Positions 28,248-61,185 of a stretch of DNA of 64,000 nucleotides are shown in pieces. Source of the DNA: Eledone cirrhosa (lineage: Eukaryota). The translations under genes were made by a program, and so were the position numbers. Where the stretch lies: assembly GCA_964016885.1 (NCBI GenBank), contig OZ024740.1:336412001-336476000 (forward strand), read 5' to 3'. Position 1 is the stretch's first letter; each line of letters opens with the position of its first letter. A model generated the notes under the pieces. It had not been told where the DNA came from. It did not search any database and worked only from the letters and a program-made list of their open reading frames with translations.

Positions 28248-28441
28248 AACGAAGGAAATGTGGTAAGGAACCAGGTGGACCATAACGCACCAAAGTACTC
28301 AATACTTAGGGTAGTAGAGTGGGTAATAGGAACGAGTAGGACCCCGACGGCTGAGCTCAAGCCGTTTCGACGGCTAATTCTGGACGGAATTAGCCGTCGA
28401 AACGGCTTGAGCTCAGCCGTCGGGGTCCTACTCGTTCCTAT
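28248..28441 (-). mobile_element. Family P PLE-like end with perfect 55-bp hairpin
   Basis: Arms 28326-28380 / 28387-28441; each arm holds the HHR 3' half GAAA-cggct..agccg-TC-gggg; (TA)n on both sides. Confidence 0.85.
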
Positions 28442-31400
28442 ATATATATATATATATATATATATATATATATATATATATATATATATATATATATATA
28501 TATTATGAATTATTTGAATATATATCTTATGAAATATCGTAGCGCCGAAGCGCTGTGTGATTTGAAATTTGAAAATGTGGGAATCCAAAACGCAGAAATT
28601 AACCGCAACAACAGTCGATCACTATAATATAAAATAAAGTTTACAAAATGCTGCAATTTTTATTGTCACTATATATATATATATATATATATATATATAT
28701 ATATATATATATATATATATATATCACATACCCTGCACCATCTCTCTCTCCCTCTCTCTCTCTCTCCTCTCTATCTCCCCTCTCCCCTCCTCTCCCCTGC
28801 CGTATCTCTCTCTCCCTGCCCTCACCCTCTCTATACCTTCTCCCTCCCTATCTTTCTCACTAACGAAGAGACATGGAGATGTCGCTATTTACTTTGTCAT
28901 ACGAGATGTGAAATATCTGTCGTTCACCGATAGGTTTGTCATTGAAGCTCTAGCTGTTGCGTTGGCCACCCGCAGGAGCGAGCCACGCGAGTCGGAATGC
29001 CTATTCTATTGCATCTTCCTCGCCATCCTTTTTCCATTCTGTCCGCTGGGACCACAAGGCAGCCTGTGGAGCTGTATGTGTTCGCATCATTGGGGTAGCG
29101 TTGTTTTCACAGTATTAAATTATTTTTTCTCATATTTTCTCTCATTTACCTTATGCATAAGTAACTCAATATATTGAGTCCGAGGTATAATATATTTGAT
29201 ATTTAAGTTCAATTTTGGTTTCTTAATGTATTTTACATGTCTATGGCTAGTGGAGGATTTCGGAAATATATATATTGGTAATTGCACTATCTTCAATTTA
29301 TCTCCTCCTCATTACACAAATACTCATATTTGAATTTTTATTGACATCTTGAGGATCATTTGTCATCTATAGTCGTGTGTGTATATATATTTGCGTTACT
29401 ATGTGTGTGTTTTCGTTTTTCTGTTTGTGTGCGTGTGTGTGTGTGTGCGTGTGTGTATGTAAAAGAAATAAAGATTATTATAAGTAAAAACATAGAACTG
29501 AAGAAAAGACGAAAGGAAGTGAGGGAATAAAGAAGAAGGAAGAGAAAGGGGAATAATTTAAATTAAGGGAAGAGAGAAGAGAGAAAGCGATAATAAAGAA
29601 TACGGGATAAGAAATGGAAAAGAAGAGAATGAAAAATAAAAATTGATAGAAACCATTAGTGGTAATATGCTGTAAGGAGCTTCAATTTCATAGATCAATG
29701 AGGTCTATATATGGAAAGAAGAAACGAGTATTGTTTCTGAAAGAAGATAAATAGTTTGAAAAAGAAATCCTTGAAATTTTATCCAGTCTAAAGCTTGCTA
29801 ACATTTGAACCTATGAAGATGGATTATCTCATTATGCTAAAAAAATGTGTTTATGCACTCTAGAATGAATACAAAGTTATTTAGAGGAAAGTCGTTAATT
29901 AGGATATTAATACTAAAGAAAATAATAATGGAAAGATATTTCTAAATATGCTGGTATCGAAATTCCTGGCAAATAATATGAGAAACTTATATCGAGTTAT
30001 GAAACTTATATCGAGATATGAGCAAATAATTAACTAAACTTTCGAAATGTCTAATAGACTAAAAAATATTGATGGTAAGGTTGAAATGTGAAATATTGCT
30101 AATCATGTAAATAAGTAAAATATATATACACATGCAAACAAACACATACATTAACGCTCTTCCTCACAAAAGTGGAACAAAACGCTGTATAAATCTTAGA
30201 GAAAATCCCTTTAAAAACATTCCTGCAACATAAAAACACATTCAGTTACTCAGAATGACGCCTCAATATTTAATTTTCCTGGCGATATTAACAATTATAA
30301 AATTAATTGTCCCATCATAACACAAATGCCCCCTATATTAATGGCGCCAGATGTGATCTTTATCTCTTGGAGTAGCATAACATCTTATGCAATTTTTCCG
30401 AAATATCATGATTGGTGAGTCCTCGCAGTCCATCGATATTTGTTTAGAAATTTTCAAACAGCAACAAGTTAGGATAGTATAATTCCCAGGAAATTGATTA
30501 GCAATACCCTGCCAGATGATGACATATTTAAAAAAAAGCTATTCAGTTTTTTATCAATACTAAAACTGCATTAACAATGGTCAACTCACTTGCTTTGTGT
30601 GTTTTATACATATAATACTGAAGAGATAAAAATACCACATCTTTTTGCATAAGAATAGACGAATATATTACATGTTTAGCGTACAACTGAATAAATGAAT
30701 GTTCTCGCGTATTTTCTAACATTTTGGGAGCATCCAATCACATCATGTGAGTAATACTACTTCGTTTATGTTTTCGAATATTTTTGTTGATATATTATGA
30801 CACAATTCCTTCTTCAGTCGTTTGAATAATCGCTAATGAATCTCAGAGTAAAGATTCGAGAAGCTTTAATTTCTAATTAAATATTTAAAAATTAACAAAC
30901 GGAGAATTCACCAGTCCATATGAATATATATATTATTTGGTGAACTCGACGTTGTAAACAATGTAATTATGATGGTGGATTTTCGATAGTAGTGAGGGGT
31001 TTGGTGGTGTTGGTGGTGGTGGTGTTGGTGGTGGTATTGGTGGAGGTGTTGGTGGTGGTGGTGGTGATGGGGGGGGGGGGGTTGTGGCGGAGGGGTAACT
31101 AGTACTGGTGGTGGTTGTAGCGGAGGGGGTACTTGGCACTGGTGGTGGTGCTGGTGCTGATGGCAGTGTTTGTTGTTGGGGTGGTGTTGGTGGTGGTGGT
31201 GCTGGTAGTCGGTGTGGTGATGATGAAGATGATGTTCAATATAATTACTGCGATTAATGGAATGGTGGTAAAGAGGAGGGAAGTGGTGCCGAGTGTAAAG
31301 ATCGAATCACTACAACAACGACATCCCCACCGGCATCCCCCATAAACATACACGCACACATTCCCCAATTGTAATGCCTCCCCACCGCCACCACAACCGC

Positions 31401-32145
31401 CTACCGCACACCAAACATTTCCTGTTAGTCTAATTACAAATACAATGCCTAGATTGTTCTGATCGCAATTAACCAAACGATGAACTGTCATTCTCCACCT
31501 CTCCTTCGACTCCACTCATTTATGTCATGACTGCAGCCAAATCGTTCACACACACACACACACACACACACACACACACACACACACACACACACACACA
31601 CACACACACACGTATACATACACACAATCATAAATACATAGATAATTACAAGCATGCATGTACATATGAACATGTTTATATATATATATATATATATATA
31701 TATATATATATATATATATATATATATATATATATATATATATATATATATATATATATACTTGTATATATGTGTGTGCATGTGTGAGGGTATTTTTGTG
31801 TGTGCATGTATGTGTATATACATATATATAGATATAGATATGTATATATATAGATATGTATATATATATATATATATATATATATATATATATATATATA
31901 TATATATATATATCCCACACACAAACACACACACAAACACACACAAACAAACACACACACACACACACACACAGATATATATATATATATATATATATAT
32001 ATATATATATATATACAAATCTAAATATGGCGTCTCCGAACCCTTAATTCGCTCCAGTTCATGAAACCTCTGGGGTGATGAGAAAATAACATGGACAGTT
32101 AACAGAATTAGCCAAGGGGAAACAAGCAGGCTGCTATCACTCCCA

Positions 32146-32497
32146 TTACCACCGCCATTACCACCGCCATTACCAACGCCATTACCACCGCCATTGCCAC
32201 CGCCATTACCACCGCCATTGCCAGCACCTTCATCACTATAACCGCTATCGTTCTCATCATCAACATGGACATTACCACCACCATCACCACCATCACTGCT
32301 ATCGTTCCCACCATCATGGATATTAACATCACCTCCATCACCTCCATCACCTCCATCACCAACATCACCAACATCACCAACATCACCTCCATCACCTCCA
32401 TCACCAACATCACCAACATCACCAACACCACCAACATCACCAACATCACCAACATCACCAACATCACCAACATCACCAACATCACCAACAACATCAC
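32146..32497. repeat. 12-bp (attaccaccgcc) and 9-bp (caccaacat/cacctccat) minisatellites
   Basis: Direct reading. Confidence 0.85.
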
Positions 32498-33589
32498 CTC
32501 GAGTTAGTTCAAGCCCAAAGCTTATTAATTGAGACAAACTTCAGGTCATAGCAATAATTGTAATATTGATAGTAACAACAACAACAACAATCGCAGCACT
32601 GCCATTGTATGTATGTGTATGTATGTATATATACATTTATATATATATATATATATATATATATATGTGTGTGTGTGTGTGTGTATATAATATATATATA
32701 TATATATATATATATATATATATATATATATATATATATATATATATATATATATATATATATATATATATATATATATATATATATTATATATATTATA
32801 TATATACACACATATATATATATATATTATATATATATACACACATATATATATATACACATATATATATATATATATATTATATATATATATATATTAT
32901 ATTATATTATATATATATATATATACATTTATATATATATATATAAACATATGTATATATATTAAAGATATATATACAAATATAATTTAATGCGCAAATG
33001 TGAAGATAATTTTCCTATTGACATGTGATGCAAACATTAAATCAAAAACACAAACATACACACACATACCCGTGCATATACACACGTACCCATGCACATG
33101 CATACGTTCTCATACATATGTGAATATATACATATACATATATATATATATATATATATATATATATATATATATATATATATATATATATATATATATA
33201 TATATATATACATATATATATATACATATATATATATATATATATATATATATATATATACACACACAGATAGATAGATATATATAGAGATATATGTGAG
33301 TGTATCTATGTGTATAGATATATGTGTATATGTATATGTGCATGCATGTGAATGTGCGGGATAGAAAGGGGAGAATTAAGAGGAAAGGTGGAAGATATCG
33401 GCATACAGCAGGAGGAGTGAGCTATACAATTATCAATTAATAATACAGACATACACGTTTCTTTCTCTCTCTCTCTCTCCTCTCTGTCTTTCTCTCTGTC
33501 TCTCTGTCTCTCTCTCTGTCTCTCTGTCTCTCTCTCACTCTCTCTCACACTCTCTCTCTCTCTCCTTCTGTGTCAGGGGCGTGTTGTTG

Positions 33590-60356: not shown

Positions 60357-60416
60357 ATATATATATATATATATATATATATATATATATATATATATAT
60401 ATATATATATATATAT

Positions 60417-60870
60417 ATATTGTTATACTTTGGGAGGGTCATGTTGCCAATAAGAAACACACGCACCAGTTGCTTTCACTTCAATTTATTATAATAAATT
60501 TATAAATTTAGGAATTGTGTGTGTGTTGTGTGCTCAGCACACAACACACACACAGAAACAAAATGGCGTAGGACAGAACAAAGTAGAGGCACAAAAACAA
60601 AGAAAAGAATCCCCAGTCACTGAAGAGGTCACAGAATGTGTGACGAAAGAACTTTGACAATATATAAACAACTATCTGGTTGTGGAACCAACCAACCAAC
60701 CACAAATTTATAAATTCCTAAATTTATAAATTTATTATAATAAATTGAAGTGAAAGCAACTGGTGCGTGTGTTTCTTATTGGCAACATGACCCTCCCAAA
60801 GTATAACAATATCGGTTTCAACACGCGATTTCAGATAAAGAATCTTGCTAAACAAATTCAGAAACGAAAT
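60417..60870. mobile_element. Fold-back cassette (100-bp arms) with HHR in spacer
   Basis: Arms 60417-60516 / 60713-60812; (TA)n on both sides. Confidence 0.85.
60616..60658 (+). ncRNA. Minimal hammerhead
   Basis: gtca-CTGAAGA-g gtcac agaatgt gtgac-GAAA-gaac-TT-tgac. Confidence 0.6.
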
Positions 60871-60993
60871 ATATATATATATATATATATATATAAATTA
60901 TGGAATACTGTTGGCTCTTTGCTACAATGTTTTCTATACCTTTCATTTATATATATATATATATATATATATATATATATATATATATATATA

Positions 60994-61185
60994 TAACAAA
61001 GGAATTGTGGTAAGGAACCAGATGGACCATAACGCACCAGAGTACTCAATACTTAGGGTAGTAGAGTGGGAAATAGGAAAAAGTATGACCCCGACGGCAG
61101 AGCTCAAGCCGTTTCGACGGCTATTTCTGGACTCGAAATAGCTGTCGAAACGGCTTGAGTTCTGCCGTCGGGGTCATACTTTTTC
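60994..61185 (-). mobile_element. Family P PLE-like end with 51-bp hairpin
   Basis: Arms 61077-61127 / 61135-61185; homologous to 28248-28441. Confidence 0.85.

Follow-up and report, generated by a model that had tools for sequence, protein, structure and literature searches.

Head-to-head stubs of a Hydra-like Penelope element in Eledone cirrhosa may record RNA 5′ ends within a hammerhead ribozyme

How do separate copies of one repeat come to be mirrored around nearly the same point, inside half of a hammerhead ribozyme? The question is raised by a stretch of 64,000 nucleotides (nt) of the 3.0 Gb genome of Eledone cirrhosa (positions 336412001-336476000 of its contig, OZ024740.1; hereafter the window), which holds several copies of a repeat that we call family P. 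Two of them, copy A (28248-28441) and copy B (60995-61189), are 90% alike, have (TA)n runs on both sides, and consist each of a palindrome of ~55 bp per arm and ~80 nt of unmirrored sequence, the 'tail' (28248-28325 in copy A, 60995-61072 in copy B). Their palindromes (28326-28441 and 61073-61189) carry the GAAA/stem III/GTC-GGGG half of a hammerhead and have their centres in the same stretch. A preliminary description of the window proposed that in each copy a complementary DNA (cDNA) had snapped back on the stem II hairpin and primed its own second strand, so that the ribozyme structure would define the inversion point. Here we describe family P across the genome and arrive at a different reading, which we consider probable: the palindromes would be two cDNAs made from both nicked strands of the target, each run off the 5′ end of an RNA, this end being a capped start in stem II or, less often, the ribozyme cut.

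Results

Layout of family P insertions

Positions in the element are numbered from +1, the A of an AGTCC motif and the putative transcription start; the predicted ribozyme cut falls after +41, the short end lies at +61 and the long end at +139. In copies A and B the long arms place the sense of the element on the minus strand of the window. The family P features of the window are:

28248..28385, minus strand: copy A, long arm with tail, +2 to +139 (GAAA, stem III, cut site and tail)
28386..28386, no strand: copy A, single inserted base at the head-to-head junction
28387..28441, plus strand: copy A, short arm without tail, +7 to +61, terminating in (TA)n
between 28421 and 28422, plus strand: copy A, predicted scissile bond of the short arm
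60995..61133, minus strand: copy B, long arm, +1 to +139, reaching exactly to the putative start
61134..61134, minus strand: copy B, extra G preceding +1, a putative copy of the cap (parents have T or C here, and the partner arm cannot supply a G)
61135..61189, plus strand: copy B, short arm, +7 to +61
41567..41624, minus strand: copy C, short arm, which belongs to an older subfamily and probably ends near +2 (diverged sequence)
41626..41691, plus strand: copy C, long arm, tail only, truncated at about +59
26159..26262, plus strand: copy E, a solitary long arm that begins at ~+36, with (TA)n runs on both sides, absent from the preliminary description

The mirrored hammerhead 3′ halves first described at 28326-28441 and ~61077-61185 are indeed palindromes with a shared centre region, but the hairpin at their centre, then taken for stem II, is the meeting point of two truncated arms, a mirror junction. 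Variants said to be mirrored within each copy are so, in A and in B, and are of the subfamily type. Copy C had been thought to break at the same place (41575-41692); its inverted arm does stop there, but 41567-41691 is no palindrome, the sense arm beginning ~58 nt further downstream. A diverged relative of family P at 41330-41450 resembles it in the GAAA/stem III half and differs in its flank.

Genome-wide, the family amounts to 42,813 exact matches of the tail motif and 60,041 of the arm motif (controls, 0), and 13,928 palindromes have exact inner arms at most 30 nt apart (control pattern, 0). The layout of insertions was examined at 98 long arms, taken from the first tail-anchored places in the initial 15.5 Mb of one contig (30 places and 60 regions). 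An inverted P arm is adjacent to 77 of them and nearly always ends at +61 next to (TA)n, so that the typical insertion has an arm ending at +139, with the tail, facing an arm ending at +61; one locus (L118) has two long arms. TA repeats stand next to 150 of 156 tail ends, and these (TA)n flanks mask any target-site duplication. The palindromes are, in short, two 5′-truncated element ends, one with a tail and one without, set head to head in (TA)n.

The parent element and its ribozyme

The consensus fold of 23 long parent copies is a type I hammerhead, with stems I-III, GAAA and a GUC site. The ribozyme half that the arms lack had been expected, as CUGANGA, upstream of the hairpin. A hammerhead does exist there in the parent, though its core is UUGANAA in 20 of the 23 copies and CUGANAA in the other 3, CUGANGA occurring in none, and the canonical CTGANGA pattern upstream of the hairpin gave 0 matches. 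This U3-A8 core variant is known from hammerheads of Penelope-like elements (PLEs) of Schistosoma (PMC4209133). A looser CTGANGA-type pattern matched 49 times and was set aside, the 30 matches inspected being junction or chance matches, and an Rfam search of the window returned no hammerhead among the 150 listed of 218 matches. The natural stem II pairs TAGCCG of the arm with CGGCTA ~30-40 nt upstream and encloses an interior of 35-40 nt, including a second small hairpin. In several folds (L062:1440-1570 and other parents) an extended stem I has its distal end at +61, the short start. In an RNA starting at +1, the freed 3′ strand of stem II could pair with the 5′ strand of stem III and close the catalytic GAAA in a small loop (L155:5149-5185, DNA fold of the complement).

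Further upstream extend 2,288 arms, and among 30 inspected many run into a shared untranslated region (UTR). One locus, L155, is a complete element: an inverted tail-bearing arm of ~700 nt, a 5′-truncated tandem copy, a ribozyme, a tail leading into an intact open reading frame (ORF), a second ribozyme and a short end in (TA)n. At its junction the beginning of the sense arm has no mirror image in the inverted arm. The ORF encodes 718 amino acids counted from the first methionine. Compared by eye with the supplementary alignment of PMC8557442, the protein shows the motif order FDIESYY, YRDDG, VIY..YIG, that is, reverse transcriptase followed by a C-terminal GIY-YIG domain. It also has SDKT (DKT instead of DKG), CNCPDRSIC (a CxCx5C linker) and CNLC..CKH, with one cysteine only inside the GIY-YIG core; CxxC and CxH are present around E and N, with no CCHH, as in the Hydra clade, and RWR, read from this single copy, stands where the Hydra clade has RWK. 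Pfam and PDB sequence searches with the L155 ORF and with four homologues gave no informative match, and a homologue search with the ORF returned 2,218 relatives, mostly unnamed. By these protein motifs, the parent of family P is assigned as a Hydra-like Penelope element. We rejected a non-LTR (long terminal repeat) retrozyme, defined by tandem units each with a complete hammerhead (bioRxiv 10.64898/2026.07.22.740005), the copies being single head-to-head pairs with half ribozymes.

Arm ends and junctions

Breakpoints are far from uniform on the element, as the preliminary description had anticipated: arm ends form a wall at +1 with a downstream shoulder, inside stem II. Ends within -6 to +8 account for 49 of the 98 long arms and 52 of the 77 partner arms. 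Under strict matching, 98 arms have the core intact; 76 of them end at +1 to +11, 14 at -1 to -8 and 8 run past -12, and 5 of the 14 are really +1 ends followed by bases of the partner. In 26 of the 77 pairs the short partner arm extends 5′ of the long arm by more than 8 nt, and in 9 it is the long arm that extends further by that much. Junctions consist of overlaps of 0-10 nt or of short inserts, many of them copied from the neighbouring arm. The clustering within stem II is therefore real, as was claimed for a ribozyme structure defining the inversion point, but it is better explained by an RNA 5′ end that happens to lie there.

The junctions of family P formed independently, many times, as shown by the diversity of their centres and by the pairing of arms by locus; the proposal that the palindromes were made separately holds. 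About 33 distinct centres occur among the first 50 palindromes in position order (counted by hand), some of them recurring. The two arms of a locus have a mean of 2.3 differences, against 5.4 with shuffled partners (34 cleanly cut pairs; lowest of 100 shuffles, 4.7). In a coarser comparison, with several pairs mis-cut, 35 of 54 pairs are within one difference (shuffled mean, 8.8). Each subfamily shows its own mirrored arms. Arms from two subfamilies are joined at loci L167 and L170, mixing of the two main P classes being rare (2 rows among roughly 275 listed palindromes), and P arms are joined to arms of other hammerhead families at no fewer than 7 of 30 loci selected by the CTGANGA pattern. 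Inheritance of the palindrome as a 194-nt unit was considered and dropped, since centres are too diverse among position-ordered palindromes. Of 1,502 candidates resembling copy A, 40 were scored as matching nearly its full length at 96-100%; its exact centre is also present in 23 of 30 fetched loci most similar to it, which were picked for similarity and are hence biased toward a shared centre.

The +1 end as a predicted capped start

YYAGT spans +1 in all 23 parents, and a TATT(T/C)A box lies 29-31 nt above it in 22 of them. The parent base at -1 is T or C; genome-wide, the base preceding +1 in the arms is G 6,014 times and A 997 times. By our reading of 44 G arms, about half have a partner that offers no source for the G. 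Where both arms end at +1 with an insert between them, the flanking bases are G/G 332 times, C/C 113 times and A/A 4 times, C before +1 being natural in some subfamilies, which bears on the C/C count; in the control with both arms at +2 they are G/G 89, C/C 66 and T/T 27 times. Many G/G junctions have a single A or T as spacer. At the +42 end, which would be uncapped, G is found in only 6 of 62 junction-type rows among the matches listed. In L1, an untemplated G at the 5′ junction has been read as copying of the cap (PMC9341517). Promoter-like spacing and the position-specific extra G together suggest that +1 is likely a capped transcription start inside stem II. Three other palindromes of the window centre, as judged by eye, on TCAGT-, TCACT- and TCAGA-like motifs; two of them have a visible hammerhead, which lies 55-95 nt downstream of the centre.

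A second class of arms ending at the predicted cut

Long arms start at +42, directly after the predicted cut, 302 times, with 28% of flanking triplets allowed, compared with 114 times at +47, with 42% allowed; starts at +39 and +36 number 69 and 29 (both arm types). A raw +42 count of 1,595 was discarded as too high: TCG opens 38 of 100 listed rows, and when 20 loci of this kind were fetched, 18 proved to be intact arms with five G. Of 20 fetched loci without the TCG, 19 hold a genuine +42 junction. In the unbiased sample about 9 of 175 arms end at +42/+43. The excess of starts at the predicted cut would be an indirect sign of the predicted self-cleavage.

Sixteen of these fetched +42 loci have a P partner. 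Both arms end at +42/+43 in 11 of them, the partner ends at +1 to +5 in 4 and is shorter in 1; a locus with two +42 arms has two entries in the list and is overrepresented at most twofold. Partner ends are thus coupled, pointing to one RNA or one ribonucleoprotein (RNP) for both cDNAs, and a minority of loci need two RNAs. At L279 and L095, arms from +42 or +1 are joined in the same orientation to the ORF or UTR of their own element, suggesting template jumps.

Other repeats in the window

The palindrome centred on TCAGT (26395-26660), which belongs to another PLE-like family, has a complete hammerhead (CTGATGA...GAAA) in both arms and its centre ~55 nt upstream of the core; more copies of this family lie at about 49386 (minus strand) and 20358 (plus strand). 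The one at 58553-59219 has arms of 322 nt, each with a minimal hammerhead, and centres near TCACT ~95 nt upstream of the core. The third (59480-59760) is near-perfect, centres on TCAGA and shows no hammerhead in the stretch viewed. Hammerhead-like motifs of other families are found at 60620, 13973 and 63150-63400, and the family at 60620 is also found joined head to head to P arms (at L041 and probably at L034). Two long inverted repeats, 14254-15531 (541 nt, 100%, 196-nt spacer) and 26816-28092 (314 nt, 91%, 649-nt spacer), and a large tandem array at 44523-48200 (19-bp unit, about 180 or more units) complete the picture.

Discussion

A mechanism for the mirrored ends

Arm 5′ ends pile up at +1, with a second peak at +42, and the two peaks may correspond to two kinds of RNA. 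An RNA capped at +1, made from the element's own promoter, would lack the ribozyme's 5′ half and so stay uncut. A read-through RNA would contain the whole ribozyme and be cut at +41/+42; left uncut it would give long arms, and once cut, +42 stubs. Reverse transcription would be primed by both nicked strands of the target at +61 and +139, two fixed positions inside the RNA, and synthesis beginning just 61 and 139 nt from the cap would yield mostly stubs. The two cDNAs would mostly come from one RNA or one RNP, have their 3′ ends trimmed by a few bases, and be joined through microhomology, 1-nt overhangs or short templated inserts.

The same layout would arise if the two cDNAs were primed likewise but reverse transcriptase stalled in stem II or on a protein bound there. 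The wall does stand in the 3′ strand of upper stem II, with ends spread over +1 to +7; by then, however, the enzyme has already passed the stronger, GC-rich lower stem, and a stall leaves the position-specific extra G and the promoter-like spacing unexplained, while the other window palindromes centre far from their own stem II. We therefore regard stalling as unlikely. Self-priming by snap-back, with one cDNA folding on stem II to prime its own second strand, agrees with the concordance of arms by locus and has been proposed for head-to-head Penelope palindromes (PMC3846280), but here it is largely refuted and seems to us quite improbable. The natural stem II interior is kept in 0 of 100 listed long-centre matches, read by eye (centres of 18-40 nt, 582 in all), and a cDNA stopped at +1 to +7 has its 3′ end unpaired in DNA folding. 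An inverted arm made in this way should never extend beyond its template, yet the short arm is often the longer one (26 of 77 pairs as given above; also L266 and L268). Neither junctions with a double extra G or a double cut site and 1-nt spacers, nor chimeric arms of two subfamilies or two families, nor the unmirrored L155 can be produced by snap-back.

Alternatively, a few ancestral palindromes may have been copied whole as a non-autonomous family, their centres being revised later by cruciform breakage and repair. We give this as little credence as snap-back: the centre of copy A recurs in 23 of 30 loci, and some centres recur among the first 50, but those 30 loci were chosen for similarity, perfect-armed (young) copies already show ~33 centres in 50, mirrored arms are specific to each subfamily, and the terminal G and the +42 class are signatures of RNA ends. 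Least probable of all, in our view, is that the +1 end arises not by initiation but through cleavage of stem II by an endonuclease or at a splice acceptor. Such an origin would suit the long hairpin and the AG dinucleotides near +1, and a Penelope intron at its hammerhead has been described (PMC4209133); against it, no fixed upstream exon is joined to the arms, and the G excess is seen at +1 with none at the uncapped +42 end.

Several points count against two cDNAs run off a capped or cleaved RNA. The TATA and initiator labels that we put on the motifs around +1 follow what we take to be their consensus, matched by eye. About half of the 44 inspected G arms could have taken their G from the partner, some G excess exists at +2 too, and +2 ends (19) are as common as +1 ends (12, or 17 when corrected). 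The 98 long arms come from 15.5 Mb of one contig and from an exact 22-nt anchor, which favours young copies; 21 of them have no P partner, and later deletions in unstable palindromes could produce some of the lopsided copies. The hammerhead fold comes without compensatory changes among 23 related parents, and minimum free energy folds of the parents give it in some copies, not all. Start, cap and cleavage are all predictions from genomic DNA. From other systems, the promoter of Drosophila virilis Penelope is internal and TATA-less (PMC2377424), the start site of Anolis Poseidon showed no difference between strands, unlike the one long and one short start paired in family P, and the Poseidon study found no RNA-seq reads that end at the hammerhead cut (both PMC11167929).

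PMC8557442 counts among the open questions how the tandem and inverted structures of PLEs arise and what function their hammerheads have. A literature search, with most subscription papers outside its scope, returned in the texts available no paper tying PLE inversion points to a cap or a ribozyme cut. The element class and the head-to-head layout were already known, and what is new is the reading of the junctions. On balance we lean towards the broader view that PLEs build their inverted ends by reading one RNA twice, and that tens of thousands of stub palindromes mark RNA 5′ ends with single-base precision. One of these ends would be a capped start within stem II, whose messenger RNA could not cut itself from the outset, and the other the ribozyme cut site. 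If so, the mirror-image ends of the Penelope-like class would be explained, and the +42 class would count as genomic evidence for germ-line cleavage by a PLE hammerhead and for reverse transcription of the cleaved RNA. Family P offers predictions that can be counted at base level: a cap site, a ribozyme cut, two starts of reverse transcription, and both products from one RNP.

Comparison with known systems

The twin-priming model of L1 inversion is reportedly due to Ostertag and Kazazian. It shares with our proposal two DNA ends that prime on one RNA, the joining of the cDNAs and the resulting inversion (bioRxiv 10.1101/2024.08.27.596794); its two cDNAs cover different parts of the RNA, whereas those of family P cover the same 61 nt from fixed starts and so give a palindrome. 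Among PLEs, inverted 5′-truncated copies and one-sided tails are standard (PMC8557442). The Penelopes of Adineta vaga (Arkhipova et al. 2013, PMC3846280) have an inverted pseudo-LTR (pLTR), palindromes at junctions, an optional tail and, within the pLTR, TATA/initiator-like motifs. An antisense template that primes itself was invoked for them, whereas the junctions of family P suggest two cDNAs, both copied from sense RNA and both ending at a capped start. In vitro, the protein of Anolis Poseidon (Frangieh et al. 2024, PMC11167929) nicks both target strands and extends them, starting at two internal sites of the RNA, which set the tail, and the hammerhead overlaps the 5′ region as in family P; the part of that report available describes no head-to-head product, cap run-off or in vivo cleavage.

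The closest relatives are in the Hydra clade of endonuclease-bearing PLEs (Craig et al. 2021, PMC8557442), which shares with family P a single ORF with reverse transcriptase and C-terminal GIY-YIG, DKT, the CxCx5C linker, (TA)n targets, a hammerhead, an inverted 5′-truncated copy and a one-sided tail. In the portion of that paper available the inversion point is not tied to an RNA 5′ end. Family P differs in having RWR for RWK, a unit of ~3.1 kb or more, a tail of ~78 nt rather than 30-40, and a U3-A8 core with a long stem II. Hydra-1_Obim (PMC8557442 supplement) resembles the L155 protein, in a comparison by eye only, yet is a different family. The Cercyon PLEs of Schistosoma (Cervera and de la Pena 2014, PMC4209133) likewise have a type I hammerhead in the pLTR, a U3-A8 core and a palindromic loop III; compared with theirs, stem II of family P is much longer and holds the predicted core promoter.

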